Shown here: in pieces, positions 47,624 through 63,394 of the stretch
Layout of the letters: each line of letters opens with the position of its first letter
How positions within the stretch are numbered: position 1 is the stretch's first letter
DNA from: a virus
Reading direction: 5' to 3' (one strand)
IMG/VR virus record: IMGVR_UViG_3300031746_000007
Coordinates: 1 to 64,000 of that record
DNA: 64,000 bases
Made by a program: the position numbers and the translations under genes
Notes under the pieces: model-generated
Databases searched by the model: none
The model's input: the letters and a program-made list of their open reading frames with translations, nothing else
Told to the model about the DNA's origin: nothing

Positions 47624-47659
47624 AGCTTCTCATTCTCCCCGTCACTTGTCAAGAGAATT
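47624..47659 (-). promoter_or_regulatory. early promoter repeat 1
   Basis: TTGACA-N17-GAAGCT. Confidence 0.75.
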
Positions 47660-47677
47660 CGTACCCCCGTATCCTGG

Positions 47678-48142
47678 TCACCGACCGGAGCCGCGGAGCA
47701 TCGACTTCTCGGCGAAGCTCATCGTTCGCTCACCGGCGACGATCACGTGGTCGAGCACCGGGATCCCGAGAATCTTGCCGGCGTCGACCAGCCGACCGGT
47801 CAGCGCGACATCTTCGGCACTCGGTGTCGGGTCGCCTGAAGGATGGTTGTGCACGACGATCACGGCGGAGGCACCGAGCAGCACCGCGGTTCGAAACACC
47901 GTCCGCGGGTCGACCCCGACCCCGTCGATGCTGCCGCGAGCGACCTCGACGTAGCCGAGCACCCGGTTCTTGACGTCGAGCGGGAAGGCGAGAAACACCT
48001 CCTGCTCTTCACCCTCGAGCAGAGCCGCCGCGATGCTCGCCGCGTCCCGGGGCTCGCGTATCGGGGTCTCGTAGTCGACTTTGGAGTCAGCCGCCACCGG
48101 CACCCGGCGCGACCGCAGCTCGAGCTTCTTGACCGTCTTCAT
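47678..48142 (-). CDS. RadC-like JAB domain protein
   Basis: EQEVF, HNHPSGDPTPSAED, LDHVIV. Confidence 0.9.
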   Translation of the reverse strand: MKTVKKLELRSRRVPVAADSKVDYETPIREPRDAASIAAALLEGEEQEVFLAFPLDVKNRVLGYVEVARGSIDGVGVDPRTVFRTAVLLGASAVIVVHNHPSGDPTPSAEDVALTGRLVDAGKILGIPVLDHVIVAGERTMSFAEKSMLRGSGR

Positions 48143-48152
48143 GTCTCCTCCT

Positions 48153-48386
48153 TCAGCCACCGGCCCCGTAGGTCGTCTCGGCGAGAGCCGAGCCGGCGTC
48201 GATGGTCTCCTCGAAAGTCCGGGCTTCCTCGAGCCAGTCCCAGGTCTCGAGAGCCTTGGCGAAGGCGGCGCCGACCGGACACTCAGCCTTGTGGGGTTCG
48301 TGGGTGTCCCAGGAACCGCAGGAGCAGCGGCGACCGCGAAGCGTCGCTTTCATCAGCCGGCGAAGCACTGAAGCGCGAGTCATCAT
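48153..48386 (-). CDS. hypothetical protein
   Basis: GGAGG RBS after promoter repeat. Confidence 0.6.
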   Translation of the reverse strand: MMTRASVLRRLMKATLRGRRCSCGSWDTHEPHKAECPVGAAFAKALETWDWLEEARTFEETIDAGSALAETTYGAGG

Positions 48387-48405
48387 GGCGACCTCCTACG
48401 CTCAG

Positions 48406-48440
48406 AGTGTCTCATTATCCTGTACAGTTGTCAATAGAAT
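48406..48440 (-). promoter_or_regulatory. early promoter repeat 2
   Basis: TTGACA-N17-GACACT. Confidence 0.75.
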
Positions 48441-48494
48441 ATGGCACACCGCGCCCCCTGTTTTTTCTTAGTGTTTTCGTGCTAGATCTCACAC

Positions 48495-49631
48495 ATGGCC
48501 GACTTTCGCGAAGAGCTTCACCCGCGGGACCGTGGCAGATTCGCTGAAAAAGCGCGCGAAGCCGAAGCACTTGCCACCCTCGCCGACATCAAACACACCC
48601 GGGACGCTCGCGAGCGCTCCGCCTCCCACCCCATCATGCGCGAGCCGACGACCCCGCCCCCGGGCGAGCGAGCGGCCTACGCGCCCGACATCCGACGCGA
48701 CGACAACGATGACGGCATCGCCGACCGCTCTCGTGTCGGTCTCGGCGGGCGCGACACGTGCCCTCCCGGCGAGATCCCTCGCCTCCCGAACCTCACCGAG
48801 CGCGAGCGCGAGGTCGAGTCTCACTTCGCCGACGCATACGAGCGCGACCCACAGGCCAAGGTCGACGAGTACCGCGCCACCGTGAAGAACAACGTCTTCA
48901 ACACCGACGACGCGAAGATGCTTTCGCCCGACTACAACCCTCCGAAGGAACTGGGCTACTCACGCGACGCGATCAATGACATGCGCTCGCAGAACAACGT
49001 GCTCGTGCACCAGACCGCGAACGCGATCGCGAAGACCGCGTTCCTGCAACGTCTCGACGAGCTGCCCGCCGGCTCGAGCGTGCTCGTCACTGCCGGCGGC
49101 TGCGCGGCTGGCAAGGGCTACGCGATCGGACACGTCGAGCAGGCCAAAGCGCTCGAGAACATCGTGGGCGCAACCTGGGATGCGGCCGGCGAGCAGAACA
49201 GCACCGAGAACCCCTGGATCCTCGACGAGTGCCGAGCCCGTGGGCTCAAACCGATCTACACCTTCGTCGACGCCGACCCGCTCGCACGCTGGTCGAGCGA
49301 CCATCCGCACGGGGTCATCGAGCGCGCCGCCGGCAAAGGTCGCATGGTCGACGCCCGGCTCTTCGCTGACAGCTACGCCGAGGGGTCGAAGAACTTCGCC
49401 GCCTTTCACGCCGCCCACAAAGACGACGCCGACGTCGGCTTCATCCTGATCGACGCGCGCACCGACTCCGCTACCCCGCGCCTGCTCGAGAACTTCCCCG
49501 AGGTCGCGCTGCGCGCTGACTCCGACGAGATCTATGCGCAGGCGTCCCGCATCGTCGACGAGAAGCTCGACCTGAACCCGGCGATCCGCCGCGGCGCTAC
49601 GGTCGGACGCAGGATCTGGGGAGCCCCGTGA
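48495..49631 (+). CDS. zeta-toxin-like P-loop kinase with N-terminal HPRD-GRF motif
   Basis: VLVTAGGCAAGKG Walker A, NTDDAK, RAAGKGRMV. Confidence 0.65.
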   Translation: MADFREELHPRDRGRFAEKAREAEALATLADIKHTRDARERSASHPIMREPTTPPPGERAAYAPDIRRDDNDDGIADRSRVGLGGRDTCPPGEIPRLPNLTEREREVESHFADAYERDPQAKVDEYRATVKNNVFNTDDAKMLSPDYNPPKELGYSRDAINDMRSQNNVLVHQTANAIAKTAFLQRLDELPAGSSVLVTAGGCAAGKGYAIGHVEQAKALENIVGATWDAAGEQNSTENPWILDECRARGLKPIYTFVDADPLARWSSDHPHGVIERAAGKGRMVDARLFADSYAEGSKNFAAFHAAHKDDADVGFILIDARTDSATPRLLENFPEVALRADSDEIYAQASRIVDEKLDLNPAIRRGATVGRRIWGAP

Positions 49632-50935
49632 GCCCGGCCGCTCGCGAAGGTCTCGTCGCCGTCGAGCGGGAAGTGTCGCGCTCCACAGGCGAGACCCACA
49701 CGCAGCGCTTTTGGGTACGGCGCGAAGATCTGAAAGACACCGTGCGCGCCGACCCCCGCCTTCGTGTGGTCGCGAGCAGCAACGCTCCCAACCTCACAAA
49801 GCTCACCGCTAGCGAGCGCAAACGAACATCATGGGACCGGGCCCCACCCATCGTCAAATCGGCGGCCCGCTCTCTGCTTCAAGATGCCGGCGGTTTGTCG
49901 GCAGCGCTCGAGGCGATTCAGAACTCCAAAAAAGACGACCTGCTCATCGACCCGGTATCCAAACAACCGACGACAGCCCTTCGTGTTCGCAACGCGCTCG
50001 AGGCACTGCGCCCGCAACCCCTCCCCAAAAACGAGGAGTATGTCACCGTTCACCACGCCACGGACGCCGCGAGCGCGGCGACGATCTTGAAGGACGGGCT
50101 CATCCCCGAACTGAAGCCCCACACGCTCGCCTCCGAGCGCTACGAAAAAGGCGAGGCTGCCACCTTCTCCCCGGGCTCCGGGCTGTCCCGCGGCACCTAC
50201 GTCGCCGAGCCGGGCAAAGCCGAGAGCTACGGGCGGGTCGTGCTCGAGCTGAAGATCCCGAAGTCCTATCTCGAGGTCTCTCCCGAGCAGACCACCCTCG
50301 GTGTCACCGACGCCGGCGAGTCTCTGAAAACTCACGACGGTGCGGTCATCACCAAACCGATCCCGCCATCCGCCATCCGCGACGTGGCGGCGCCGCGATT
50401 CACCTTCGAAAAGCCGCTGCCGGCCGGGATACACGAGCCGGTTGCTGCCGCCCTGACCACCCTTCTCGACACCTACCCGGAGATCAGCGGTCTCAAGATC
50501 AACATGAGCGAGCTGTCCGGCACTGGCGTCATGGCGCTAGGCGGGAAGACCAGCATCACCCTCAATACCCAGATCTGGGATGACCCCGCCAAGCTCGCCG
50601 AGCATGAGAAAGCGTGGACCGGTCTAGTCATCGACGCCACCCCCGCCGGGACCGTGGTGCACGAGGTCGGTCACGTGATGTCGAAGTACGTTCACGATCA
50701 GCTCGGAGACGACGACTTCGATCGCATCATCACAAAGCACGCGCCAGACCACGGCTCTCTCTCCTCCCCCTCAGTGTATGGACAAGAGTCGCCCGGTGAA
50801 TTCTTGGCCGAATCGTTCTCTGCCCGGCACTTCGGTCACCACGCGAACAGAGACACTGAAGAAATGCAGCGCTACCTTGCGGCATCGGTCTCCTTGTGGG
50901 ACGAGCTGATCTCCGAAGCGAGGAAACCCCGATGA
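49628..50935 (+). CDS. polyvalent protein: N-terminal tag + H-Y-type ART-like domain + zincin metallopeptidase
   Basis: VHHATD..ILKDGL..GTYVA..AESYG..IPPSAI; VVHEVGH..EFLAESF. Confidence 0.65.
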   Translation: MSPAAREGLVAVEREVSRSTGETHTQRFWVRREDLKDTVRADPRLRVVASSNAPNLTKLTASERKRTSWDRAPPIVKSAARSLLQDAGGLSAALEAIQNSKKDDLLIDPVSKQPTTALRVRNALEALRPQPLPKNEEYVTVHHATDAASAATILKDGLIPELKPHTLASERYEKGEAATFSPGSGLSRGTYVAEPGKAESYGRVVLELKIPKSYLEVSPEQTTLGVTDAGESLKTHDGAVITKPIPPSAIRDVAAPRFTFEKPLPAGIHEPVAAALTTLLDTYPEISGLKINMSELSGTGVMALGGKTSITLNTQIWDDPAKLAEHEKAWTGLVIDATPAGTVVHEVGHVMSKYVHDQLGDDDFDRIITKHAPDHGSLSSPSVYGQESPGEFLAESFSARHFGHHANRDTEEMQRYLAASVSLWDELISEARKPR

Positions 50936-51189
50936 TCCCCGTCACCCCGCCCCCGCACCTCCGCATCACCGCCGACCCCGAGCCCGACGACACCGTCGTC
51001 AGCGACCCGAAGCAACCGCTCTACGACCTCGCCGAGATCCTCCGTTCGAACCTCGAGAAGAACCTCGCCGACCCCGAGACCTTCTCGATCGAGCGCGAGC
51101 TTCAAGAAGACGCGATCGAACCGAGCCCCGACCTCGGGTTCCCCGTCGAGCTACCCGACCTGAACCCGGACGGTTCGACGAAGCCCTAA
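50932..51189 (+). CDS. small acidic Pro-rich protein
   Basis: ATGA overlap with upstream gene. Confidence 0.6.
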   Translation: MIPVTPPPHLRITADPEPDDTVVSDPKQPLYDLAEILRSNLEKNLADPETFSIERELQEDAIEPSPDLGFPVELPDLNPDGSTKP

Positions 51190-51479
51190 CCGACGCAGAT
51201 CACCGTCGCGACTTGGTACCGCTCGCCGTCCGACGACAGCTTGATCGCGACGCCGGAGAAGAACGAGTCGCCGTGAAAACCGTCGTACCCGAGCAGCGAC
51301 AGGTCCCCCGTACGCATGAACTGGTCGAGGTGGTACCACGTCCCGCGGTAACACAAGAACCCGTCGACGACCTCCTCGGGATCCTGGTAGTCGAACTCCC
51401 GCTCGAGCACCGCCGCCGGCACCTCGGTCCTGTAGGCGAACGGCTTCCACTTGTGGTCAGTCTTGATCAACGTCTTCAC
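51186..51479 (-). CDS. conserved phage hypothetical protein
   Basis: FLCYRGTWYHLDQFMR..DSFFSGV; GTG start after GGAGG. Confidence 0.65.
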   Translation of the reverse strand: MKTLIKTDHKWKPFAYRTEVPAAVLEREFDYQDPEEVVDGFLCYRGTWYHLDQFMRTGDLSLLGYDGFHGDSFFSGVAIKLSSDGERYQVATVICVG

Positions 51480-51682
51480 GTCAGCACCTCCGCCACGGGC
51501 TCGACAGCCTTCCACACGTCGCGAGCCGTCTTGACCGTCTTGAACGCATCGATCGCGAGCGCACCCGCAGCCCCCGCCGGCGCACCGAACACCATCGCAC
51601 ACACGAACGCGAGCACTGCCGCAGCCGACATCACCTCCGCCGTCCGGAGCCCCTTCCCGCACGCACTCACCAGGCTTCCCAC
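51476..51682 (-). CDS. small membrane protein
   Basis: Hydrophobic core; GAGGAGG RBS. Confidence 0.5.
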   Translation of the reverse strand: MGSLVSACGKGLRTAEVMSAAAVLAFVCAMVFGAPAGAAGALAIDAFKTVKTARDVWKAVEPVAEVLT

Positions 51683-51708
51683 GACCGCACCTCCTCACCA
51701 CAATCACT

Positions 51709-51743
51709 ATCGTGACATTCTCGCCTTCGTTTGTCAAGAGAAA
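51709..51743 (-). promoter_or_regulatory. early promoter repeat 3
   Basis: TTGACA-N17-CACGAT. Confidence 0.7.
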
Positions 51744-51750
51744 AGAGACG

Positions 51751-52029
51751 TCAGGCCGACATCACCTTCGACCCGTTATCCTCCGCGCTACCGGTCTCGT
51801 CCCAGTTGACCAGATCGAGCGTCCCATCCTCCCGCACCGCCGGTACCCGGTCGTATGCCTCGCGCGCCGACGACTCGAATGCCCGAACCAGGAAGTCGAG
51901 CACCACCGTCTCGCTCTTGCCCGATTCCTTGACGAGCCAGTCGACCCAATCCTTTCGGATCCGCACCTCGACCCGCCGGGTCGTTCTCACGACCCCGTCC
52001 TTGCTCATCGTCCACTTCACTCGAGCCAT
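51751..52029 (-). CDS. hypothetical (possible RHH DNA-binding)
   Basis: RRVEVRIRKDWVDWL..SETVVLDFLV pattern. Confidence 0.5.
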   Translation of the reverse strand: MARVKWTMSKDGVVRTTRRVEVRIRKDWVDWLVKESGKSETVVLDFLVRAFESSAREAYDRVPAVREDGTLDLVNWDETGSAEDNGSKVMSA

Positions 52030-52032
52030 CGT

Positions 52033-52362
52033 TCAGCCCTCCTCCGCCATCCGCCGGCGAGCCGCGTGGAGCGCTCCCATCGGCGTCCCCTTCGTGGTGA
52101 GCAACCCGACCGACCGGCAGGCTTCGTGAGCCGCGGCGCCGCACGTCGTGCAGGGCTTCCGGCGCATCCACTCTTCCGGAGCGTACCGAAGAAAGGTCTC
52201 GGTGCCGTCCGACCCAACCCGGTACATCTCGAATCGAGTCGTTTTCTTCGACCCCTTGAACCCCTCGACCCGCTTCACTTTGAACGTCGCACCCTCGAGC
52301 GACGTGAACGTGAAGCACCCGGTCACCTCGAGCCACCCGTAACCCCTCGTTCGCATCGTCAT
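52033..52362 (-). CDS. hypothetical with C-terminal zinc finger
   Basis: CTTCGA..C..H. Confidence 0.55.
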   Translation of the reverse strand: MTMRTRGYGWLEVTGCFTFTSLEGATFKVKRVEGFKGSKKTTRFEMYRVGSDGTETFLRYAPEEWMRRKPCTTCGAAAHEACRSVGLLTTKGTPMGALHAARRRMAEEG

Positions 52363-52373
52363 CGCACCCTCCT

Positions 52374-52550
52374 TCAAGCGGCCTTCTTCACCGGCTCCGC
52401 GTCCCCGTAGCAGGGGAGGTCGCAGAGATCTTCCGCCGCGTGTTTCCAGCAGTACCAGCTGCCCTTCTCAGCCCGGCAATCGCAACCGGGGTGCCCGCAG
52501 CTCGGTGCCCCAACCATCCGGAGCCCGCTCTTCTTCGTTCCTTTCTTCAT
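52374..52550 (-). CDS. small Cys-rich protein
   Basis: CGHPGC..YCWKH. Confidence 0.5.
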   Translation of the reverse strand: MKKGTKKSGLRMVGAPSCGHPGCDCRAEKGSWYCWKHAAEDLCDLPCYGDAEPVKKAA

Positions 52551-52574
52551 CGCGAGCCTCCTTCCCACGATGCA

Positions 52575-52609
52575 AGTGTCTCATTATCCCGTACGAATGG
52601 CAATAGAAA
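52575..52609 (-). promoter_or_regulatory. early promoter repeat 4
   Basis: TTGCCA-N17-GACACT. Confidence 0.7.
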
Positions 52610-52644
52610 ACGACAAGCCGCGGTCGATTCTTTGACGCTGTGCG

Positions 52645-52944
52645 TCAGGCAGCCGCAGCGGTGAAGCCACACACCCCGGCAGTCGAATCACCCATCCCGA
52701 GCATCGCAGCCGCGGCAGTCTCGGCAGCCTCGGCGGCAGCCACCGCAGCCTCGGCCGCCTTCTTGGCGACGGCGAGCATGGCGGCGACCGCATACTTGGC
52801 TTTGTCCGAGCCGTCCGACTCCTCGGCAGCGGTGCCGGCGGCATCCGCGGCGAACGCCGAAGCCGACGACGACTCGCGAGCGATGTAGGCCAGGGCTTTC
52901 ATCGCCTCACCCATCGACGATCCGCTCTTCTTCTTGCCCGCCAT
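52645..52944 (-). CDS. Ala-rich hypothetical protein
   Basis: AAGGAGG RBS after promoter repeat. Confidence 0.55.
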   Translation of the reverse strand: MAGKKKSGSSMGEAMKALAYIARESSSASAFAADAAGTAAEESDGSDKAKYAVAAMLAVAKKAAEAAVAAAEAAETAAAAMLGMGDSTAGVCGFTAAAA

Positions 52945-52967
52945 GACACCCTCCTTCCTACAGGCAG

Positions 52968-53003
52968 AGTGTCTCATTCTCCCGTACGATTGTCAAGAGA
53001 ATT
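52968..53003 (-). promoter_or_regulatory. early promoter repeat 5
   Basis: TTGACA-N17-GACACT; overlaps TAA of upstream gene. Confidence 0.75.
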
Positions 53004-53277
53004 AGCGCTGTTGCTGGTATCCGATCGCCTCGAGCGCAGCGACCTCGAGCAGCGCCCACTCCTCCGGCGTCTCCGGTCCCTCCGGCTTGCGCAACGCCGC
53101 GAACCGGTCGTCGCCCATGAGCTTGCGCCGCATCGCGCCCGATCGGCGCGCGAGCCAGACCTCCTCGGCGTGATCGTGAATTCGCTGGAACCGAAAGTCG
53201 AGCTGGTCCCATACCGTCGTCATCCGCCCGATCGACGCCATGTTGTCGACGACCTTGTTGCCGCAGTCGCTTCCCAT
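53002..53277 (-). CDS. hypothetical protein
   Basis: GGAGG RBS. Confidence 0.55.
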   Translation of the reverse strand: MGSDCGNKVVDNMASIGRMTTVWDQLDFRFQRIHDHAEEVWLARRSGAMRRKLMGDDRFAALRKPEGPETPEEWALLEVAALEAIGYQQQR

Positions 53278-53287
53278 CGCACCCTCC

Positions 53288-53770
53288 TCATCCGCTCGAG
53301 TCGTAGCTCGAGATCTCGCCGCACTTCTTGCAGCGGGTCACGTGCCAACACATCCCGAAGTGTTGCACCCCGAGCTTCCGCGCCTCGTCCCCCGAGATCT
53401 CTTCGAAGTCGTGCTCGCATGCGAGCGTGTGCCAGCAACCCTGGCACCGCGCCGGGTCGGTCACGTTCTCGTGATCAGGCGACCCGTACTCGATCAGGTG
53501 CGCCCGGCAGCTCTTGTGCAGCCGGAGCTTCGCAGCCGCAGCCTCAAGCTCAGCCGTGACACCCTCGGGCGTCAGCGAGATCTTGCCGCTCTTCACGTCG
53601 TCGATGAACTTGCGCCACTCGTCATCCCAGCCCTCGATCCCGCGCACCCACTTGGCGCGACACGTGAGCTTGAAAAGCTCTTGCTCCTTCTGGTAGACGG
53701 CATACTCAGCCGCCCGCTTCGCCTCGAGCGCTCGTCGCTCCGCGGCTTTCATCCTCGGCTTTCGTGGCAT
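53288..53770 (-). CDS. hypothetical protein, Cys/His-rich C-terminus
   Basis: GGAGG RBS; CEHDF..CKKCG. Confidence 0.6.
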   Translation of the reverse strand: MPRKPRMKAAERRALEAKRAAEYAVYQKEQELFKLTCRAKWVRGIEGWDDEWRKFIDDVKSGKISLTPEGVTAELEAAAAKLRLHKSCRAHLIEYGSPDHENVTDPARCQGCWHTLACEHDFEEISGDEARKLGVQHFGMCWHVTRCKKCGEISSYDSSG

Positions 53771-53781
53771 CACACCCTCCT

Positions 53782-54171
53782 TTAGAAGCTGAAGTCGTGA
53801 TACTTGCCGCGGCGCCCGATGCTGAGCCCTTTGCCGCCGCCGCGGAGCTTATTCAGCCGGCCGGTCACCGGGTTCTCGACCATCTCCCCCCACTTCCCGC
53901 TCGGAGCCCGCTTGAAGTAGAAGACCCGTCCGTCCGGGTTCGGGGTGAAAACGTAGTCCTGACACTCGCTCATCCCGTTTTTGTCGACCCGCTTGGCGTC
54001 ATCTTCGACGACCTTGACGACCACCGAGCCCTTGTCGCGAAGGATGTCGACGATCGTCCCGGCGTCGCGGTCCGACCAGCCGCACATCGTGACCCCCATC
54101 CCGATCTCGGGCTCGGGCTGTCCGATGACGCTCCTTGAAATGATGTCGTTGGTGATGCTGCCGAAAGCCAT
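53782..54171 (-). CDS. conserved phage hypothetical protein
   Basis: PEIGMGVT..SDR; GGAGG RBS. Confidence 0.65.
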   Translation of the reverse strand: MAFGSITNDIISRSVIGQPEPEIGMGVTMCGWSDRDAGTIVDILRDKGSVVVKVVEDDAKRVDKNGMSECQDYVFTPNPDGRVFYFKRAPSGKWGEMVENPVTGRLNKLRGGGKGLSIGRRGKYHDFSF

Positions 54172-54180
54172 GATGCCCTC

Positions 54181-54378
54181 CTAGTTCTTGCGGATGGTAT
54201 CGACGAAAGCGCGAATCGTCTCACCGAGCACCGTGTCATCGACCCCGCCGGCGACTGCCGCCATGCCGACTTCGAAGACCGTGCAAATGTCCATCATGTC
54301 GATCTGAATCCCCGAGCACGTCGCGTAGTAGGCTTTACTGACGCGCGCCTCGGCTGCCCTGGTTTCCTTCTTTGTCAT
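54181..54378 (-). CDS. hypothetical protein
   Basis: AAGGAGG RBS after repeat. Confidence 0.6.
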   Translation of the reverse strand: MTKKETRAAEARVSKAYYATCSGIQIDMMDICTVFEVGMAAVAGGVDDTVLGETIRAFVDTIRKN

Positions 54379-54399
54379 CGCTGCCCTCCTTCGATTGTC

Positions 54400-54435
54400 A
54401 TCGTCTCATTCTCCGAGACGATTGTCAAGAGAATT
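54400..54435 (-). promoter_or_regulatory. early promoter repeat 6
   Basis: TTGACA-N17-GACGAT. Confidence 0.75.
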
Positions 54436-54734: not shown

Positions 54735-54756
54735 TGTTCTTTCCTCCTCGATTGTC

Positions 54757-54792
54757 ATCGTCTCATTCTCCGAGACGATTGTCAAGAAAATT
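54757..54792 (-). promoter_or_regulatory. early promoter repeat 7
   Basis: TTGACA-N17-GACGAT; 40 bp identical to repeat 6. Confidence 0.75.
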
Positions 54793-54804
54793 GTCAAAAA
54801 AAGG

Positions 54805-56194: not shown

Positions 56195-56230
56195 ATCGTC
56201 TCATTCTCCGTGCCGAGTGTCAAGAGAATT
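56195..56230 (-). promoter_or_regulatory. early promoter repeat 9
   Basis: TTGACA-N17-GACGAT. Confidence 0.75.
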
Positions 56231-56234
56231 CGAC

Positions 56235-56705
56235 CTACCCGCCGGTGATCTTCATCCCCTTCGACCGGCGCTTCAGATCTTCGAAGAGCTTCCGGTTCGG
56301 GTGAAGCTCCCAGAGCTTCGGCTCGTTCACCGGTCCCCAGACCATCGTGCGGCAGAGGGTTTTGCGAATCTCGTCCTTGGTGTACGTGTGGCTCTCGTGG
56401 TACTCGCCGCCGGGCGGCAGCGTCAGGTCGACGACTTTGCCGTTCCAGGTCAGCCAGGCGTGCTCGATCGGGATCCCGAGCAGGCTCGCTCCCGAGGCAT
56501 ACCCCTCGTGGTACTCGATGCCGGGCAGCTCCGTGTAGAGCATGAACCGCGCGCAGTTCTCGTAGCAGCTTTTCATCTTCGGCACGAACCCGATGCGCCG
56601 AATCTCCGCCTTGATCTCCGGCGGAAGGTGCGACCACGGCACCGGACACCAGCCGCGGGTCGAGTACAACTCGATCCGCCGGTCAGTCGTCAATCGCTTC
56701 CTCAT
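56235..56705 (-). CDS. hypothetical, papain/transglutaminase-like C-H-D pattern
   Basis: SCYENC..YHEGYA..PIEHAWL..VVDLT. Confidence 0.55.
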   Translation of the reverse strand: MRKRLTTDRRIELYSTRGWCPVPWSHLPPEIKAEIRRIGFVPKMKSCYENCARFMLYTELPGIEYHEGYASGASLLGIPIEHAWLTWNGKVVDLTLPPGGEYHESHTYTKDEIRKTLCRTMVWGPVNEPKLWELHPNRKLFEDLKRRSKGMKITGG

Positions 56706-56728
56706 CGCGCCCTCCTTCCTACGATGAG

Positions 56729-56764
56729 AGTGTCTCATTCTACCGTCCGTGTGTCAAGAGAATT
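56729..56764 (-). promoter_or_regulatory. early promoter repeat 10
   Basis: TTGACA-N17-GACACT; overlaps TAA of upstream gene. Confidence 0.75.
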
Positions 56765-57989
56765 AGGCGGCGACCGGCACCTCCTCGACCTTCCCGACCG
56801 CCTTCACCCGGGTCACCACCGTCTCGGTGATGCCGTTCCGGGTCGCGTGTTTCTTGACCGTGGCCTTCACTTTCCAGGTCTCCCCGACCTCCCCGAGCGT
56901 CCCGCCGGCGGAGGCGAACCAGACCGCCACGTTGCCCTCGGGAGTCAGGAACCGGTGGATCCGGGTCAGCCCGTACATCCCCTCGACGTCGAAGCGGTCG
57001 ATCAAGGTCAGGGTCAGGTCGAGCCGCTTGCCGGGCTCACCGAAGGCTACCGAATTCTCGAGCCGCTTGCGCTTGATCTCGTTCCCGACCTCCTTGTTGT
57101 AGGCGGAGACGATCGAGGCGGCGATCCCGCCTTCCTTGTACCCCACGTGACCGAACCGGGCGACCAGCCGCACGTTCCAGAGGTAGTCGCTCGAGGCGTT
57201 CTCGGTGAGCCCGACCGCCCACTCGGCGGCAGCCCCCGCGAGTTTCTCATCCTCGGGAGTAGGCACCGGGCGCGAACCCGGATTCTCGCGCCAGTGGCGG
57301 AGCAGGTAGCTGTCGGGGTTCAGCGTCGACCAGACCGTGTCAGCCGTCGCGGTCCGCGGAGGGTTCGAATCCCGTGCAGCCCCTCGGCTCATCCACCCGT
57401 CCCGGCGGATGATGCAAGCGGTCATGGCCAAGAAATCGGCGAGCGGGACCACGTTGTACCCACCGCGACCGCCGCCCCCGAAATCCTCGGCCTCGCGGCA
57501 GAGAGCGTCGATTTCGAAGAGCACCTCGGCCCCCGCCGCGAGAGCTTCCGGGCTCTTGTGGCCCAGGAAGTCTTTCAGGCAGGAGCGGCCGACGAGCTTG
57601 AAGGTCCCGTCGTCGTGGGCGACCACGAAGACCTCGAGCCGCGAGCGGGTCAGGCGGCAGTGGTCGCAGGCGATCGGCGCGGTCCGGTAGCCCTCGGGGA
57701 CCTCCTCACCCGGCACCGACCGGATGACGTTGCCCTCACCGAGACTGGCGACGACGGCGATGAGGCGCCACCCTTCGAACTTGGGTGCCTTGCCCTCGAC
57801 GTCGACCTCGCAGAACTTCATGCTCGGGCGTTTCTTGGTGTCCGGGTCGACCTCGCCATACTCCTTGACGAAGGGCTCCCCGACCGTCCAGGTCGGAGGC
57901 TCGACCCCGAGCTTCGTCGCGCGCTTCACCAGCTTGCCGAGCCCGGCGACCAGGCGCGAGACGTTGAATTCGGGAACCGTGACTTTCAT
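56763..57989 (-). CDS. conserved phage protein, Zn site + C-terminal OB-fold-like domain
   Basis: CDHC..VGRSCLKDF; GNVAVWFAS..VKATVKKH..TVVTRV. Confidence 0.65.
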   Translation of the reverse strand: MKVTVPEFNVSRLVAGLGKLVKRATKLGVEPPTWTVGEPFVKEYGEVDPDTKKRPSMKFCEVDVEGKAPKFEGWRLIAVVASLGEGNVIRSVPGEEVPEGYRTAPIACDHCRLTRSRLEVFVVAHDDGTFKLVGRSCLKDFLGHKSPEALAAGAEVLFEIDALCREAEDFGGGGRGGYNVVPLADFLAMTACIIRRDGWMSRGAARDSNPPRTATADTVWSTLNPDSYLLRHWRENPGSRPVPTPEDEKLAGAAAEWAVGLTENASSDYLWNVRLVARFGHVGYKEGGIAASIVSAYNKEVGNEIKRKRLENSVAFGEPGKRLDLTLTLIDRFDVEGMYGLTRIHRFLTPEGNVAVWFASAGGTLGEVGETWKVKATVKKHATRNGITETVVTRVKAVGKVEEVPVAA

Positions 57990-58007
57990 CTCCCTCACCT
58001 CAAGAGT

Positions 58008-58043
58008 ATCGTCTCATTATCCTGTACGGTTGTCAAGAGAATT
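58008..58043 (-). promoter_or_regulatory. early promoter repeat 11
   Basis: TTGACA-N17-GACGAT. Confidence 0.75.
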
Positions 58044-58054
58044 CGCAACAAAGA

Positions 58055-58252
58055 TCAACCCGCAGCCGGCTTCACCCTCGGCTCGACCACGGCAATGACT
58101 TCGAACACACCGCTCCCGCGGTCTACCGTGCGATAGATGCACATCGGGCAGTTGTGGAACTTGACGCTCTTGCGCGCCTCTCGGAGACACGCCGCCTTGC
58201 TCGTGCGCGGGTAGATCGAAGTACCGTAAAAGTACAACGCCTTGTTTTTCAT
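58055..58252 (-). CDS. hypothetical protein
   Basis: Single gene between repeats 11 and 12. Confidence 0.55.
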   Translation of the reverse strand: MKNKALYFYGTSIYPRTSKAACLREARKSVKFHNCPMCIYRTVDRGSGVFEVIAVVEPRVKPAAG

Positions 58253-58269
58253 CGCCTCACCTCAAGCTT

Positions 58270-58305
58270 AGAGTCTCATTATTCGGTACGGTTGTCAAGA
58301 GAATT
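58270..58305 (-). promoter_or_regulatory. early promoter repeat 12
   Basis: TTGACA-N17-GACTCT. Confidence 0.75.
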
Positions 58306-58311
58306 CAAACC

Positions 58312-58656
58312 TCAATCGTCGCGATCGGCCAGTCTGTGTGCGACCCGCTCCCGCAGCCACATCGGCACCTCGCTCGCGTACACCCGCAACCGCGGTGTAT
58401 TCAGCGCTCGAGCCGCGCGCATCGTGTCCCAGAACCACTCACTCGCCCACTTGCGCCCTTTGCCGTACGTGGGATCGTGCCGGTTGATGCGGTCGTGAAC
58501 CCCCTCGCGGAATTCCGCGAGCACCGTCGCACCCGTGACCGGCGCCCACCCCGTGAGCCCGTGGTCGTAGGTGCGCGCGGGGTCGACCGCTTTGACCGCG
58601 GCGACGTACGCTTTGAGCGACACCGAGTGACCATTTCCGAGTCGGATGGTTTTCAC
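58312..58656 (-). CDS. hypothetical protein
   Basis: AAGGAGG RBS, GTG start overlapping upstream stop. Confidence 0.6.
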   Translation of the reverse strand: MKTIRLGNGHSVSLKAYVAAVKAVDPARTYDHGLTGWAPVTGATVLAEFREGVHDRINRHDPTYGKGRKWASEWFWDTMRAARALNTPRLRVYASEVPMWLRERVAHRLADRDD

Positions 58657-58859
58657 GAAGCACCTCCTTTTTTTCGCAAAGAGTGCCCGACGCTCGGCTT
58701 CTCGCCGACCACCCTCACGACGCGGATGCCGGTCCATCCGTACGCATGCGTCAACTCGTCGACCCGTTTGCGAGCGTCGGCTTCCAGAGAATTGCCCCAC
58801 ACACTGTGCACCACGTTCTGCGCGTCTACGACGCAATGCCAAACACCACTCGTTCTCAT
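58653..58859 (-). CDS. hypothetical protein
   Basis: AAGGAG RBS. Confidence 0.5.
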   Translation of the reverse strand: MRTSGVWHCVVDAQNVVHSVWGNSLEADARKRVDELTHAYGWTGIRVVRVVGEKPSVGHSLRKKGGAS

Positions 58860-58909
58860 GGGTCTCCTTCACGAACGTACCCTAAAACAGCCAGACCAAT
58901 CACACCCTC

Positions 58910-59131
58910 CTAGCTGAGTGACACCGGGCGCGAATCGGTCTCGAGCATTCGGTAGTTGACCGGCTCGTCGCTCGTGAGAACGACGAAGTCCGAAGGCATG
59001 AACCATCGCATGAGCAGCTCGACTCCGGCGCGGGTCGCCTCTTCGAAGGTAGAGAACGCGCACCCGTTTGAGCACGCCGTCTCCTTCGTGCTGCCCGTAC
59101 CGCCTCCGTAAACGCCAACCTTGAACGACAT
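58910..59131 (-). CDS. conserved phage hypothetical protein
   Basis: NGCAFSTFEEA..LLMRW..DEPVNY. Confidence 0.6.
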   Translation of the reverse strand: MSFKVGVYGGGTGSTKETACSNGCAFSTFEEATRAGVELLMRWFMPSDFVVLTSDEPVNYRMLETDSRPVSLS

Positions 59132-59164
59132 CGCAGGCTCCTTTCCGTTTCTCCCCACGATCGG

Positions 59165-59199
59165 ATGGTCTCATTATCGTGTACGATTGTCAAGAAAAT
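59165..59199 (-). promoter_or_regulatory. early promoter repeat 13
   Basis: TTGACA-N17-GACCAT. Confidence 0.75.
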
Positions 59200-59236
59200 A
59201 GAGACACGAATCGACCGGGCTCGAGCGGAGCCCGCG

Positions 59237-59422
59237 CTACTTGATCGGCTTCGTCAGCTTGACCAGCCGCGCAGCCGGGCTCGAGCGCCCGGGAGGCAGC
59301 GACGCCTTCAACCGCGCCGCGCTCGTGAGCACCCTCTTGCCTTGCGCGTCGTACTCGATGAACTCCCCGGCGTCAGCCAGCGACAGCAACTCGGCGCCCT
59401 CGTCGACCTGCGGCTTCGTCAT
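59237..59422 (-). CDS. 61-aa protein coupled to GNAT gene
   Basis: ATGA overlap with GNAT stop. Confidence 0.55.
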   Translation of the reverse strand: MTKPQVDEGAELLSLADAGEFIEYDAQGKRVLTSAARLKASLPPGRSSPAARLVKLTKPIK

Positions 59423-60390
59423 AGTCCTAGCCGTCCCTTCGCCACTTCGAACCCGGGGTCGCCGTCGCGCAACGACAGCTCGCCTTGCCACGACGTGTCA
59501 CCGAGCAGGAAGTCCTTGCCGACCGGTTTGCCATCGACCTTGATCGATGCGACCTCCCACGCCCGATCGGCGTGTCGATCGGCGAGCGCCCGCGCCTCGG
59601 CCGGCGGCATCCCCGCCTGCTCGAGCACCTTCGGGAATTCCTGCCGCACCTGATCGGCGTGCTCCTTGTTCCAGTTGAACCCGAACCGCGCCCACGTGTA
59701 GCGACCGACACTCCCGGCCGCCATTGTCACCTTCGACACCCCGAGCTTGCGGTACTCCTCGAAAGCGTTGCGCGTGATCTCGGCACCGATGCCCTTGCCC
59801 TGTTGATCCTCGTCCAGAAACATCCCGACGTGGTGCACCGTCAACGCACCGGACGAATCGCGCGCGAACTGCCGCGTGATCGTGCCGACCTGTTGACCGC
59901 TCCGATCGTGCAGCGTCGCCGCCACTAGCACCGCCGGAGAATACTCCACCGTCGACCGCGGAGCCCCGAGATTCGAAAGCGCCTGATAGCGAATCGTCTC
60001 CTCGTCCAACATCTCCTCACCAGGATTGTCGGCTGCGAACTTCGCTCGCACCGTGTCCATAGCCATGCGAACCGTGCTCTCGTCGTGCGTTACGACCACG
60101 CGCTTGTCGGCACGCTCGTCGTCGACGTGGTCTATCTTCACCGCGTAGCCGGGCGGGGGGCGCATGGTCTGCCGCAACTCCGCCGGCGTGATCTTCTTCT
60201 GGAACACGCGCTCGACGTTCTCATCGAAGTGTTCTGGAAACTCCTCGGGGTTCTTCGACTCGACCGCCGCCGAGCCCTCGCCCGTCAGCTGATCCTTGAA
60301 CCCGCCTTCGCGAATCCAGAACCGCTGCGTGTGCGTCCGCCCCGACCGCGACACCTCACGCTCGACTGCGATCAAGCCTTCACGTGGCAT
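59419..60390 (-). CDS. GNAT acetyltransferase with N-terminal tag
   Basis: FLDEDQQGKGIG acetyl-CoA motif, GRYTWARFGF; TAGGTT-N6-ATG. Confidence 0.75.
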   Translation of the reverse strand: MPREGLIAVEREVSRSGRTHTQRFWIREGGFKDQLTGEGSAAVESKNPEEFPEHFDENVERVFQKKITPAELRQTMRPPPGYAVKIDHVDDERADKRVVVTHDESTVRMAMDTVRAKFAADNPGEEMLDEETIRYQALSNLGAPRSTVEYSPAVLVAATLHDRSGQQVGTITRQFARDSSGALTVHHVGMFLDEDQQGKGIGAEITRNAFEEYRKLGVSKVTMAAGSVGRYTWARFGFNWNKEHADQVRQEFPKVLEQAGMPPAEARALADRHADRAWEVASIKVDGKPVGKDFLLGDTSWQGELSLRDGDPGFEVAKGRLGL

Positions 60391-60404
60391 GCTCGCAACC
60401 TACC

Positions 60405-60698
60405 TCACTCCGACTCGATCGGCCAGAGCCCGAAGTCCCCGTCGCGCCAGCCCCAGCTCGCGCCCTCGACCGGCACGCACTGCTCGAGCAGCTCGCACGC
60501 CTCATCCTCTTCGTGAGCGTCGTCGCTCATGTCGTCTCGCAGCGCCGCCGACAGCGCGCGCACCTCGTCCTGGTGACCCGCCATCGCACAGAACGCCGCG
60601 AGCGCATCCGCGCATCGCCGGCGCGTGTGCTCGTGCCCGAGCGCCCCGTCTCCGAAACACCCGCAATCCTCTAACCCGAGCTTCGTCCACCCTGCCAT
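60405..60698 (-). CDS. hypothetical protein
   Basis: GAGGAGG RBS; WGWRDGDFGLW. Confidence 0.6.
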   Translation of the reverse strand: MAGWTKLGLEDCGCFGDGALGHEHTRRRCADALAAFCAMAGHQDEVRALSAALRDDMSDDAHEEDEACELLEQCVPVEGASWGWRDGDFGLWPIESE

Positions 60699-60708
60699 GT
60701 TGCCCTCC

Positions 60709-61002
60709 TCACAAGCATCCGTCGTCATAGTGGTCTTCGTCGAGCCCGGCCGCCTTCGACGTCTCCGGCTCCTCCGGGAAAAGCTCCGCCGCCGTGCAGC
60801 CATCCCACGTGATCTTCGCGTCGCCGTACGCGCCCACCGCGTAGCCGAACGTCGCACTGATGTCGGGGTGCGGTCCGACGTACCGGTGAGCGAACTTGCG
60901 CGCACCCTCGAGCGTCTTGAACTTGCCCCGCTTGTGGTAGTGGTCGATCGTCGTCAGCCGCACCACGATCTCCCTGCCCCCGGTCCCCTTCGTCTCGCTC
61001 AC
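60709..61002 (-). CDS. conserved phage hypothetical protein
   Basis: FKTLEGARKFAHRYVG. Confidence 0.6.
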   Translation of the reverse strand: MSETKGTGGREIVVRLTTIDHYHKRGKFKTLEGARKFAHRYVGPHPDISATFGYAVGAYGDAKITWDGCTAAELFPEEPETSKAAGLDEDHYDDGCL

Positions 61003-61003
61003 G

Positions 61004-61261
61004 TTAGACCTCCTTCCATGTCAACCTGTACTCCCAGAACCGACGCACCATCATCCCGGTCCCGCCGAACAGCCCGTGCCGATTGTGCTGATGGTCGTAC
61101 CGCTTGCCCTTGCGAGCCTCGACCCTGCCCTCGGCGACGAGCTTCCGGAGCACCTTGCGAGCCGCGACCGGGGTCAGCCCCATCGCCACCGCGACCTCCT
61201 TCGTCGGGCACCATGCCCCGGCGCCAGCAAGAAACCCGAGAGCCTTCGTTCGCGCATCCAT
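61004..61261 (-). CDS. winged-HTH-like DNA-binding protein
   Basis: TKEVAVAMGLT..ARKVLRKLVAEGRV. Confidence 0.6.
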   Translation of the reverse strand: MDARTKALGFLAGAGAWCPTKEVAVAMGLTPVAARKVLRKLVAEGRVEARKGKRYDHQHNRHGLFGGTGMMVRRFWEYRLTWKEV

Positions 61262-61278
61262 CGCCTCACCTCGAGCAT

Positions 61279-61314
61279 AGCGTCTCATTCTCCCGACCGT
61301 TTGTCAAGAGAATT
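61279..61314 (-). promoter_or_regulatory. early promoter repeat 14
   Basis: TTGACA-N17-GACGCT; overlaps TAA of upstream gene. Confidence 0.75.
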
Positions 61315-61813
61315 ATCGATCTTCGACGAGCACGAGGTCGCAGTTGTAGGAATCGAAGGAGAAGAACGGCACCCCCTCCGCCTTGGCCCGCTCGCGAGCC
61401 TCGGACCCGACCGTGTCGATCATGCTGCCGTCCTTGGCGCAGTAGACCCCGTTACCCATCCCGCAGTACGCGAAGACGCCGGCCGCGCACGGCACCGGCT
61501 TGAGAGGGGTGTTGGCGTGAATCCACCGATCCCCGTAGGGCTTCAGCATGTAGACGTCGCCCGGCTTCCACACCTTGCGCCGCGCGATCTTCGCCGCTAC
61601 CGCGTCGAGCTTGGCGAGCATCGCGGCATCGACCGGCTTCAGCTCGCGCATCGCGGTCAGCGCTTTCGAGACCGCCTCGCTCGTGGCGAGCAGCGCGGAG
61701 AGCGCCCGGTGATAGGTCGCCTCGTCGACGAACTTGTCCGAGAGGTACGTGCGCATCGTGCCCTCCTCGAGCACCGGCACCCCCTTGAGATTGAACAGCA
61801 CGCGCTCCGTCAT
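61313..61813 (-). CDS. hypothetical protein
   Basis: AAGGAGG RBS before ATG 61813. Confidence 0.6.
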   Translation of the reverse strand: MTERVLFNLKGVPVLEEGTMRTYLSDKFVDEATYHRALSALLATSEAVSKALTAMRELKPVDAAMLAKLDAVAAKIARRKVWKPGDVYMLKPYGDRWIHANTPLKPVPCAAGVFAYCGMGNGVYCAKDGSMIDTVGSEARERAKAEGVPFFSFDSYNCDLVLVEDR

Positions 61814-61836
61814 CGCACCCTCCTTTTGGTTGTCAC

Positions 61837-62172
61837 TCACGACGGGTAGAACCCGAGCACGAACCCGTTGTAGGGTTCGGCGTTCCAGCCCTCACCGCGC
61901 AGCCCGGTCGGGAACGGTCCCGGGGTCGAGTAGTTCCCCAGCTCGCCGGCGCTGATGTCGCTCCCGGCACTCACCATCGTCCACTCGAATGGGCCCTCCT
62001 CCCAACACACCGACCAGCCCGAGCCCCAGCCGCGCTCCTTCGTCTCGGCCGGCGACCAGAGCACCGCGCCCCGCGCGTCCCAGGTCTCCGTGAGCCACGT
62101 GTGGAACCTCTTCGCCGCAGCCGCCGGCGTCTTCGCCTCGAGCACCTTCGCCGCTGTCACCTTCACTGGCAT
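61837..62172 (-). CDS. conserved phage hypothetical protein
   Basis: VCWEEGPFEW..AEPYNGFVLGFY. Confidence 0.65.
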   Translation of the reverse strand: MPVKVTAAKVLEAKTPAAAAKRFHTWLTETWDARGAVLWSPAETKERGWGSGWSVCWEEGPFEWTMVSAGSDISAGELGNYSTPGPFPTGLRGEGWNAEPYNGFVLGFYPS

Positions 62173-62182
62173 CGCACCCTCC

Positions 62183-62440
62183 TCAAGCCGTCGCCGGCTT
62201 CATTGTGAGCCCCGCACACTTCCAACCGTGGTACTGAGCGGGGGTGGTCGCGATCAACTTCGTCCCGTGGCGCTTCGTGATCAGCGTCCCGTCGTGGCCG
62301 AAGAACAAGAACAAGGGCAGCGTCGCATCCTCGGCGAGCTTGCCGAACATCGACTCGTCGAGCAGCAACTCAAACGCCGCGGCAGCCTTGGCCGCCTTCA
62401 ACGCCCACATCGCCTTCATCCGCTTGGCCGTCTTCGACAT
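62183..62440 (-). CDS. hypothetical protein
   Basis: GAGGAGG RBS after repeat. Confidence 0.55.
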   Translation of the reverse strand: MSKTAKRMKAMWALKAAKAAAAFELLLDESMFGKLAEDATLPLFLFFGHDGTLITKRHGTKLIATTPAQYHGWKCAGLTMKPATA

Positions 62441-62464
62441 CCCGCACCTCCTCGCTACATGAGG

Positions 62465-62499
62465 AGTGTCTCATTCTCTGAGCCGAGTGTCAAGAGAAT
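62465..62499 (-). promoter_or_regulatory. early promoter repeat 15
   Basis: TTGACA-N17-GACACT; TGA of -35 is the upstream gene's stop. Confidence 0.75.
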
Positions 62500-62699
62500 A
62501 GTGGCGTCAGTCGGCCCGAGACGCGCACCAGAAGATTCGCCTTGTACGCGAGCGGTGTCGGCGTGCCGCAGTGCCCGTCCCACACGACATAGACCGTGTC
62601 GGCGCAGAGACTCTTGACCGTGCCGAGATTGCCGAAGTCGTGGTCGACGTCGACCGACTGCGTCACCCGATCCCCTACCAGCATGTTCGTGTTCGCCAC
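62490..62699 (-). CDS. small SH3-like hypothetical protein
   Basis: VGDRV..GTV..VYVVWD. Confidence 0.55.
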   Translation of the reverse strand: MANTNMLVGDRVTQSVDVDHDFGNLGTVKSLCADTVYVVWDGHCGTPTPLAYKANLLVRVSGRLTPLFS

Positions 62700-62709
62700 G
62701 TTGCCCTCC

Positions 62710-63222
62710 TCACTCTTCGATCCGGGCCGGCGCCTTGTTGCTGCCGCGGCACTTTCGAGTCGACGAGTACCGGGCGTAGAACCCGTACCCACCGCGGTCA
62801 GGCTCGTCGTGACTCGGGACCTTGCCGCGCTTCACCTCGAGCGCCGCGCCACAGACCTTGCAGATCCCGACCGGCGGCACCTCGGTCTCGACCGAGCCCT
62901 CGGGAGCCGGCCGCGCCGTGATGTAGAGGTAACCGTAGCTCGCGTTCGTGGAGCACGTGAACTCTACCCCGCCGATGACGACCGCTTCGACGTCAGCCCT
63001 CGAGGGTTCGAACCGGTCCTTGGCCCAGCGGATGAACTTCCGGAGCGGTCCCGCGTTCATCTTCTCGCGGAATGCCTTGCGATCCTCCTCGGTGCCGACC
63101 ATGTCCTGACGGTCCGGCAGGAGATCGACGACGAGCCCCGTGTAGATGGCGCGTGCGCCCCACAGCACCGGCGCCTCGACCCCGGCGCTCTTCAACCCGA
63201 ATGCCAACTCGCTCGACTTCAT
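62710..63222 (-). CDS. hypothetical protein
   Basis: GGAGGAG RBS; TNASYGYLYI; C-terminal CKVC..H..C. Confidence 0.6.
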   Translation of the reverse strand: MKSSELAFGLKSAGVEAPVLWGARAIYTGLVVDLLPDRQDMVGTEEDRKAFREKMNAGPLRKFIRWAKDRFEPSRADVEAVVIGGVEFTCSTNASYGYLYITARPAPEGSVETEVPPVGICKVCGAALEVKRGKVPSHDEPDRGGYGFYARYSSTRKCRGSNKAPARIEE

Positions 63223-63238
63223 TTGCTCTCCTCCTCCG

Positions 63239-63337
63239 TTAGCGAACCGTCATCGGCTTCATCGCCGTCTCATCCGGCGACGCCGGGAACAACAGACAAC
63301 CGAGCAGCAACCCCAGAACCAGAACCATCGCGCTCAT
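63239..63337 (-). CDS. 32-aa hydrophobic peptide (not in ORF track)
   Basis: GGGAGG RBS directly after repeat 16; MSAMVLVLGLLLGCLLFP.. Confidence 0.45.
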   Translation of the reverse strand: MSAMVLVLGLLLGCLLFPASPDETAMKPMTVR

Positions 63338-63358
63338 CGTGACCTCCCTTCGATTGTC

Positions 63359-63394
63359 ATCGTCTCATTCTCTCGTACGCTTGTCAAGAGAATT
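63359..63394 (-). promoter_or_regulatory. early promoter repeat 16
   Basis: TTGACA-N17-GACGAT. Confidence 0.75.

Follow-up and report, generated by a model that had tools for sequence, protein, structure and literature searches.

A repeated, probable sigma-70-type promoter in a variable small-gene array of an uncultured high-GC phage

The 64,000-nucleotide stretch analysed here (the window) is the first part of an 84,668-bp viral contig, IMG/VR record IMGVR_UViG_3300031746_000007 (IMG/VR class "linear", estimated 78% complete), with a guanine-plus-cytosine (GC) content of ~64%. It derives from an uncultured phage whose sequence is present in sediment metagenomes from several studies, with portions of the array region in ~15 samples. 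The minus strand carries nearly all genes from ~72.6 kb down to position 1; the structural genes of the contig include those for the large terminase, portal, major capsid protein, tail sheath and tape measure, and a replication module on the plus strand beyond 72.7 kb encodes a D5-like primase/helicase, a PIF1 helicase, an MT-A70 methylase, a PD-(D/E)XK nuclease and a family A polymerase. The subject of this report is a variable array of ~50 small genes, mostly without a family match, that lies behind 20 copies of a short repeat with the features of a promoter (Table 1). Megablast of the array region against 50,697 phage records gave zero matches, and the best records for the large terminase among the same 50,697 phages, in small siphoviruses and others, were only ~24% identical, which does not place the phage in the T4 superfamily. 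The phage is a high-GC myovirus and, because it encodes an integrase, probably a temperate one.

Searching the window with the pattern TTGACA-N10-AKAATGAGAC (two or fewer mismatches) returned 16 matches, all on the minus strand, against a mean of 0.02 in shuffled sequences (0/100 shuffles reached 16). Their positions are exactly those listed in a first-pass annotation of this DNA, which had also recorded the constant spacing; no copy contains an indel. The whole-contig motif scan proposed there added four copies past the window (64152, 64825, 65986 and 67034) and brought the contig total to 20, all on the minus strand. The set is sharply bounded, since with a position weight matrix built from them the 20 copies score 45–69 bits and everything else scores 12 bits or less; all copies are confined to 47.6–67.0 kb, with zero in the structural or replication modules. 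Copies are always intergenic or overlap a stop codon. As had been described, each is followed by a GGAGG-type ribosome-binding site (RBS) and 1–5 small genes; the start codon lies 46–62 nt past the first T of TTGACA for 19 of the 20, and behind the copy at 65986 the first start codon was not placed by the gene caller. The reported overlap of stop codons with the repeat was likewise confirmed, by TAA within T-AATTCTC at 53002, 54435, 56763 and 61313 and by TGA at 62490.

Table 1. Features of the array and its surroundings (positions in the window; the third column gives the lower coordinate of TTGACA)
Feature	Coordinates	TTGACA	Strand	Remarks
Large terminase	43374-44954			on contig
Tyrosine recombinase (phage integrase family)	46019..47050		-	PF00589, E=2.6e-16; probable start 46972
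Variable array, ~45 small, mostly family-less genes in short operons	46962..64000		-	continues to ~67041 with 4 more copies
Promoter-less gene 47303->46962	46962..47303		-	exactly missing from L128 (flanks 88-91% identical)
Promoter repeat copy 1	47624..47659	47647	-	AATTCTC; -35 TTGACA at 47647-47652; -10 variant GAAGCT
RadC	47678-48142		-	family match
Promoter repeat copy 2	48406..48441	48429	-	heads operon containing RadC
Three-gene island, opposite orientation	48495..51189		+	inside array; no repeat of its own
Promoter repeat copy 3	51709..51744	51732	-	weakest copy, 45.5 bits; -10 is CACGAT
Phage zinc-finger protein	52033-52377		-	family match
Promoter repeat copy 4	52575..52610	52598	-	-35 is TTGCCA
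Promoter repeat copy 5	52968..53003	52991	-	AATTCTC overlapped by TAA stop of gene 53277->53002
Promoter repeat copy 6	54400..54435	54423	-	40 nt identical with copy 7
DUF7717 protein	54435-54734		-	family match; one-gene cassette
Promoter repeat copy 7	54757..54792	54780	-	TTGACAAT remnant and hairpin plus T-run upstream
Promoter repeat copy 8	55483..55518	55506	-	-10 and leader form downstream half of L129 chimeric promoter
Three genes and copy 9	55522..56705		-	missing from L129 as single promoter-to-promoter unit, 1,246 bp
Promoter repeat copy 9	56195..56230	56218	-	pattern and weight-matrix match
Promoter repeat copy 10	56729..56764	56752	-	upstream flank forms upstream half of L129 chimeric promoter
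408-aa member of phrog_2319	56763-57989		-	family match
Promoter repeat copy 11	58008..58043	58031	-	breakpoint in or at copy in L123, L138 and Logan contigs
Promoter repeat copy 12	58270..58305	58293	-	heads single-gene cassette 58252->58055, missing from contigs of two other samples
Promoter repeat copy 13	59165..59200	59188	-	chimeric in L138, 59237-60390 missing there
GNAT-domain protein	59419-60390		-	family match
Promoter repeat copy 14	61279..61314	61302	-	upstream edge bounds indel of gene 61813->61313
Promoter-less gene 61813->61313	61313..61813		-	absent from L123, L138 and contigs of runs X2 and X3
Promoter repeat copy 15	62465..62500	62488	-	TGA within TTGACA is stop of gene 62699->62490
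Promoter repeat copy 16	63359..63394	63382	-	pattern and weight-matrix match

The anatomy of the repeat was derived from the information profile of the 20 contig copies and from by-eye inspection of 66 further distinct copies in relatives (flank identity 70–99%). The conserved layout comprises a T-rich upstream element, TCTTGACA at -35, a 17-nt spacer ending in TGA, and a hexamer G-A-C-n-(A/C)-T. TTGACA is present in 19/20 contig copies and 65/66 copies from relatives, the exceptions reading TTGCCA; the 17-nt spacing, TG at -15/-14, A at -11 and T at -7 are constant in all 20 + 66 copies; and variation falls on the first 10 spacer bases and the middle of the -10 hexamer. TG at -15/-14, A-11 and T-7 are positions read by primary-sigma holoenzyme in extended -10 promoters. 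Orthologous copies in a 96–98% identical relative diverge by 0.9% in the -35 block, compared with 3.9% at third codon positions and 4.8% in the spacer, indicating that the promoter core is constrained and the spacer is not. The sigma-70-type positions, conserved at the right spacing, support the promoter reading put forward earlier, and the repeats very probably act as sigma-70-type promoters.

Several observations weigh against that assignment. Nearly all copies have G instead of T at -12 (C in copy 3), so the -10 hexamer is not TATAAT-like; a standard TTGACA/TATAAT sigma-70 consensus scan calls none of the repeats, because the -10 matches TATAAT at only 2–3 of 6 positions. A lookup of RNA runs found none holding the array sequence. 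In addition, a second -10-like box, nAKAAT (-21 to -16), lies 9 nt after TTGACA and is equally conserved, and a simple sigma-70 reading leaves it unexplained; it may be an operator half-site or may make an additional contact, with the polymerase or with a phage factor. As the main -10 element nAKAAT was rejected, given its 9-nt distance from TTGACA and the lack of a -35-like hexamer 16–18 nt upstream of it.

Part of this excess conservation could reflect an operator. ATTCTC, 5' of the -35, and GAGAAT, the nAKAAT box, are reverse complements and form a dyad ATTCTC-N15-GAGAAT with centres 21 nt apart; it might be the binding site of a phage regulator that switches all copies together, the repeat then being promoter plus operator, with the C1 operators of P1 and the stoperators of L5 as precedents. 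The conserved positions exceed what sigma-70 requires, and a phage that is probably temperate, as its integrase suggests, would need to silence ~20 strong promoters in the lysogen. Yet the dyad arms, where they vary, do so with no apparent covariation across the 66 listed copies from relatives (by eye, no formal test), TC before TTGACA and RTG before the -10 are known from general knowledge as polymerase-contact preferences too, and a Pfam scan of the genes around 67–73 kb gave no repressor candidate. We regard an operator function as unlikely though far from negligible; it is compatible with the promoter-array explanation preferred below.

The G at -12 and the conserved box at -20 to -16 would also fit a motif read by a polymerase carrying a phage-encoded sigma factor or appropriator in place of the unmodified host sigma-70 holoenzyme, and distant terminase relatives bear quite different repeated motifs before their small genes. 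A near-invariant TTGACA at exactly 17 nt, combined with TG, A-11 and T-7, is nevertheless a primary-sigma signature; dependence on a phage protein is ruled out for the earliest transcribed genes, unless that protein is injected; and no sigma-like or RNA polymerase gene was found among the scanned proteins, many open reading frames (ORFs) having no assignment. Recognition through a phage factor is accordingly graded as quite improbable, and reading by the host sigma-70 holoenzyme is preferred.

No consistent stem-loop accompanies the repeat: folding z-scores of the 20 copies centre on 0 (-2.6 to +1.6), pairing within copies amounts to a weak TTCTC/GAGAA plus one 6-bp stem in two identical copies, and terminator-like sites are not above shuffled sequence. 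One of the few terminator-like sites in the array lies upstream of copy 7 (54789-54821, minus strand), where a TTGACAAT remnant is accompanied by a 7-bp hairpin and then seven T; it may be a recombination scar. The 40 identical nt shared by copies 6 and 7 surround the one-gene DUF7717 cassette, and short-read assemblies break there.

The gene content behind the repeats was compared with relatives recovered by scanning a motif form with 21.5 specified bases over JGI metagenome contigs. Twenty-two contigs from related samples carry the motif; they fall into three identity groups (~95–99%, ~87–93% and ~70–77%), and all bear the same promoter, which has drifted in a lineage-specific way. The motif scan of IMG/VR gave only single, chance-like matches, and that of one genome per prokaryote species gave a single match in a Campylobacteraceae metagenome-assembled genome, taken as chance, and no prophage copy. 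Alignments to the related contigs showed synteny broken at 28/47 covered junctions: insertions, deletions and replacements are numerous between close relatives from the same sediments, and all of them break at gene boundaries.

Two of these differences are clean chimeric promoters, which show that recombination between repeats has occurred in nature. In L129, a promoter with the -10, leader and downstream gene of copy 8 follows the upstream flank of copy 10 and, ahead of that flank, the last part of gene 57989->56763, so that a single promoter-to-promoter unit is missing (Table 1). In L136 and L137 (70% lineage), one promoter stands in place of the L131 promoters at 6024 and 6857; its upstream side in L136 is 70/70 identical to the L131 6024 flank and its downstream side 73/75 identical to L131 6857, with an 833-bp unit including RadC missing and the switch inside a 17-nt stretch common to both promoters. 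Copy 13 is chimeric in L138. In contigs of two other samples gene 58656->58312 is linked via a single promoter to 57989, without the cassette of copy 12; because most joints in such contigs are cross-matches between promoter copies, these were excluded and only 61314->61835 and 58312/promoter/57990 were used. The switch point varies: L136 changes over in the first 11 nt counted from TTGACA, L129 in the interval separating -35 from -10, and L138 close to the AATGAGAC box. Crossing-over between direct repeats, or circle integration, is expected to give just such products.

Other exchanges involve single genes that lack a promoter of their own. The indel of gene 61813->61313 is bounded by the preceding gene's stop codon and by the initial base of the AATTCTC in copy 14, and gene 66162->65983, absent from L121, has bounds of the same kind (upstream stop and repeat edge); the 3' edge of copy 14 bounds a replaced first gene in L124 and L138. 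Gene 47303->46962 has plain gene junctions at both bounds and gave no tblastn match in L131, L132, L136 or L137 (70% lineage). L123 holds an extra gene between 61002->60709 and 60698->60405, with both bounds within a common GAGGAGGG ribosome-binding site, and a replaced segment, 58029-58906, whose bounds are a common TAGGAGGGTGTGAT just before the start codon and the leader of copy 11. L126 has 150 additional bp at the start of 63222->62710. L138 lacks 2 kb and three promoters between genes 64612->64172 and 62172->61837, which are fused directly, with a stop codon and a gene's first codons as bounds. The plain junctions have a consensus of their own, a stop codon abutting (G)AGGAGGGTG(C/T)GATG, also written (T)GAGGAGGGTG(C/T)GATG, that may serve as micro-homology. 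L123 also carries a ~360-bp patch around copy 9 (55922-56280) that is 50–64% identical, with flanks at 96–98% and the promoter core at 85%; the patch, an allelic replacement, ends inside both flanking genes.

We then asked of each pair of neighbouring array genes whether it is broken in any relative covering the pair. Promoter junctions were broken in 12/18 cases and plain junctions in 16/29 (odds ratio 1.6, Fisher p=0.55); the small number of junctions (47), relatives that are not independent and the limits of detecting diverged genes make this a test of low power. When all contigs were compared with one another at 88% identity or more and the ends were sorted by hand, ~21 distinct alignment ends fell between -40 and +65 of a promoter in one or both partners and ~24 elsewhere; promoter junctions make up ~38% of array junctions. 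The repeats are therefore used as breakpoints but are not clearly favoured and, allowing for repeat density, promoter junctions are no more breakable than plain ones, from which it follows that the exchange unit is the single gene and not the promoter-to-promoter block. The first-pass annotation had the repeats partition the region into exchange units, which does not agree with promoter-less single genes moving about as often; its view of the repeats as recombination points holds for the chimeric promoters and the further in-repeat breakpoints, and its expectation that indels between relatives break exactly at repeats for some of them, but about half of the breakpoints lie elsewhere, at plain stop/RBS/start junctions. 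Two considerations qualify the role given to recombination here: a modest preference for promoter junctions is still compatible with the adjacency test, and the chimera events are not polarisable as deletion or insertion.

The similar breakage of both junction types raises the question of whether the repeats promote recombination at all, or whether breakpoints in them are a by-product of positions where breakage is tolerated. Neighbouring copies are no more alike than distant ones (p=0.46) and orthologous copies show no excess divergence, giving no sign of tandem duplication or frequent ectopic gene conversion; both results would suit repeats that are promoters only. Against this stand the two clean chimeras, whose perfectly matching flanks around a shared 17–45 nt core are the specific mark of a crossover inside the repeat and would not readily arise from random breakage, and ~11 further alignment ends between -11 and +40 of a repeat. 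Promoters that play no part in recombination are thus rather unlikely, and a repeat that also takes part in crossing-over is preferred.

The last cassette of the array does run into a tyrosine recombinase, as the first-pass annotation had stated: this gene closes the operon behind copy 1, downstream of the array and co-oriented with it, and a DUF4406/DUF7768 gene, a ParB-N-domain gene and the terminase come directly after it, with no gap. Its N-terminus has a weak match to a SAM-like domain. The order promoter, 47602-like gene, integrase is kept in four 70%-lineage contigs. L119 matches L131, L132 and L136 at 98–100% identity over the aligned flanks, but small unrelated ORFs come after its 47602-like gene, with no integrase within the remaining 1.2 kb of contig. 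Between the integrase stop and the DUF4406/DUF7768 gene, a conventional promoter-like TTGACT-N17-TAAATG (45965-46000, minus strand) is unlike the repeat family.

An integron-like accordion had been proposed earlier, with the involvement of the recombinase marked as speculative; the enzyme would then act on the promoter repeats as specific sites for taking up and excising cassettes. The dyad within the repeat and the gain or loss of promoter-to-promoter units would fit such a role, and an integron shares with the array co-oriented small cassettes, a repeated site between them and a tyrosine recombinase at one end. The recombinase, however, is not IntI-like: in NCBIfam its best matches are generic Xer-type models, far below their cutoffs, and the integron integrase model TIGR02249 gives 18.6 bits against a cutoff of 265. 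It is downstream and co-oriented, unlike integron integrases, which stand upstream of their arrays and diverge from them. Each array cassette has its repeat, a promoter, at the 5' end, the opposite of the folded attC sites at the 3' ends of promoter-less integron cassettes; no attC-like 3' palindromes were seen in the array, where each unit opens with its own promoter. The dyad arms are 15 nt apart, compared with 6–8 nt in tyrosine-recombinase core sites. The crossovers fall at different repeat positions in L136, L129 and L138, many exchanges ignore the repeats, and L119 is near-identical in its flanks without an integrase in its remaining 1.2 kb. On these grounds a site-specific, integron-like mechanism finds no support, and we consider it extremely improbable; the recombinase is most likely an ordinary phage integrase with no part in cassette exchange.

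The explanation that we consider probable as a whole combines a consensus promoter read by the host, a hyperplastic array, and recombination at both repeats and plain junctions. The repeat would be a phage-specific sigma-70-type consensus promoter, read by host RNA polymerase, present in at least 20 one-direction copies across a ~20-kb accessory-gene region upstream of the packaging and structural genes. Each copy, with its 10–26 nt leader and strong Shine-Dalgarno site, would drive a 1–5-gene operon, probably early in infection. Two short homologies are present at gene boundaries, the 35–45 nt promoter repeat and the stop/RBS/start consensus. Homologous or short-homology recombination between promoter copies may remove or add promoter-to-promoter units, leaving one chimeric promoter, and other events would move single promoter-less genes, the tyrosine recombinase taking no part. 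Far bolder would be to see the repeats as landing pads for gene capture, at which promoter-bearing mini-circles are exchanged between co-infecting phages with a boost from a recombinase. If so, mini-circles should insert at any copy at a rate far above ordinary homologous recombination, and the array would be a functional integron analogue built from promoters, the enzyme being the integrase or another; this we hold to be very improbable.

The promoter cassettes of T4-type phages, cited in the first-pass annotation, prove to be the right comparison, with promoter, location, gene class and chimeric motif shared. In these phages the promoter-early stem-loop (PeSL) element, a strong sigma-70-like early promoter with ~50 copies per genome, combines an AT-rich upstream part with a stem-loop terminator; PeSLs cluster in hyperplastic regions, ahead of genes that lack known relatives; closely related phages show indels adjoining them, the absence of a flanked gene leaves one chimeric motif, and mini-circles have also been found (Arbiol et al. 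2010, PMC2839356; Comeau et al. 2014, PMC4122927). The array repeat resembles PeSL in being a repeated, strong sigma-70-like promoter whose upstream part is T/A-rich and which leads into a Shine-Dalgarno site and start codon, in the upstream stop codons that abut it, in its hyperplastic location before genes without known relatives, and in the indels next to it between close relatives. The replacement of a promoter-flanked gene by a single chimeric motif, as in ORF192 of RB49/phi1, recurs in L129 compared with the contig and in L136 compared with L131. In contrast to PeSL, the array lacks a consistent stem-loop or terminator component, it lies in an unrelated high-GC (64%), probably temperate, integrase-bearing myovirus whose terminase is ~24% identical to that of any sequenced phage, its -10 is non-canonical (GACnnT with a TG extension), and its variable genes are no more motif-associated than motif density predicts, with no breakpoint excess over plain junctions. 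For these reasons the array is a variant that resembles PeSL and not a member of the PeSL family.

Multi-copy early promoters also occur in lytic phages, among them the T4 early promoters, the SPO1 host-takeover module and T5. Like the array repeat, these are near-consensus host-type promoters with ~40 conserved nt repeated before small early genes, but the array copies are far more uniform and the array phage carries an integrase. Temperate phages have dispersed operator families (the C1 operators of P1, the stoperators of L5, and the phiC31 early promoters with conserved inverted repeats), with which the array shares tens of copies of a short regulatory site, often in a single orientation relative to transcription. 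Those are repressor sites defined by experiment, whereas an operator in the array is a possibility raised by the dyad.

With the array, the idea that a promoter can serve as a recombination module reaches beyond T4-type coliphages to a sediment phage that is unrelated, high in GC and probably temperate, with natural population variants as the evidence in place of a laboratory pair. It also tempers that idea, in that promoter junctions are no more breakable than ordinary ones once repeat density is counted. The 86 distinct copies, with G at -12, a TG extension and the AKAAT box, form a natural set for the study of promoter recognition in a high-GC host.

Distant terminase relatives (L103, L107, L077 and L051; 32–54% identity) have repeats of their own, quite different, before small genes: CCGCAACACGTATTGCGG occurs 10 times in L103, nearly always before an RBS, a hairpin plus TTCGGGTTTCGGTTTATGGT occurs 9 times in L107, and L051 has a 23–24-nt tandem array. 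To judge by these, a repeated motif per small-gene unit seems to be a conserved architecture whose sequence is lineage-specific.

Metagenome contigs (L122, L117 and L134) run past both ends of the viral contig (window 1-1154; contig 84542-84668) and overlap mutually at ~80–91% identity, which indicates that a gap of ~7.8 kb separates the ends and that the genome, at ~92 kb, is circular or permuted. Within the gap lie at least three further promoter copies, one back-to-back divergent pair among them, and the copies of the full genome are therefore not all co-oriented. The window's own terminase is without a LAGLIDADG insertion; in the 70%-identity lineage (L132:3356-6022, minus strand; also L042) the large terminase is a single 888-aa ORF with a ~400-aa in-frame insertion after residue 74 that, since it matches LAGLIDADG homing-endonuclease domains, is probably an intein.

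Within the array, a search for relatives of the 408-aa protein in IMG/VR found none. The three-gene island is present in L123, L131, L136, L137 and L119 and absent from L132, and its 435-aa protein has a weak, sub-threshold match to a zincin-type domain (E=0.0035). The first 30–40 residues of this protein (49640-49745, plus strand) and of the GNAT-domain protein (60290-60390, minus strand) are alike, at 65–88% identity in tblastn cross-hits, and the same N-terminal segment heads other genes in the gap-region contigs L117, L122 and L134; it looks like a leader shared by unrelated enzymes.

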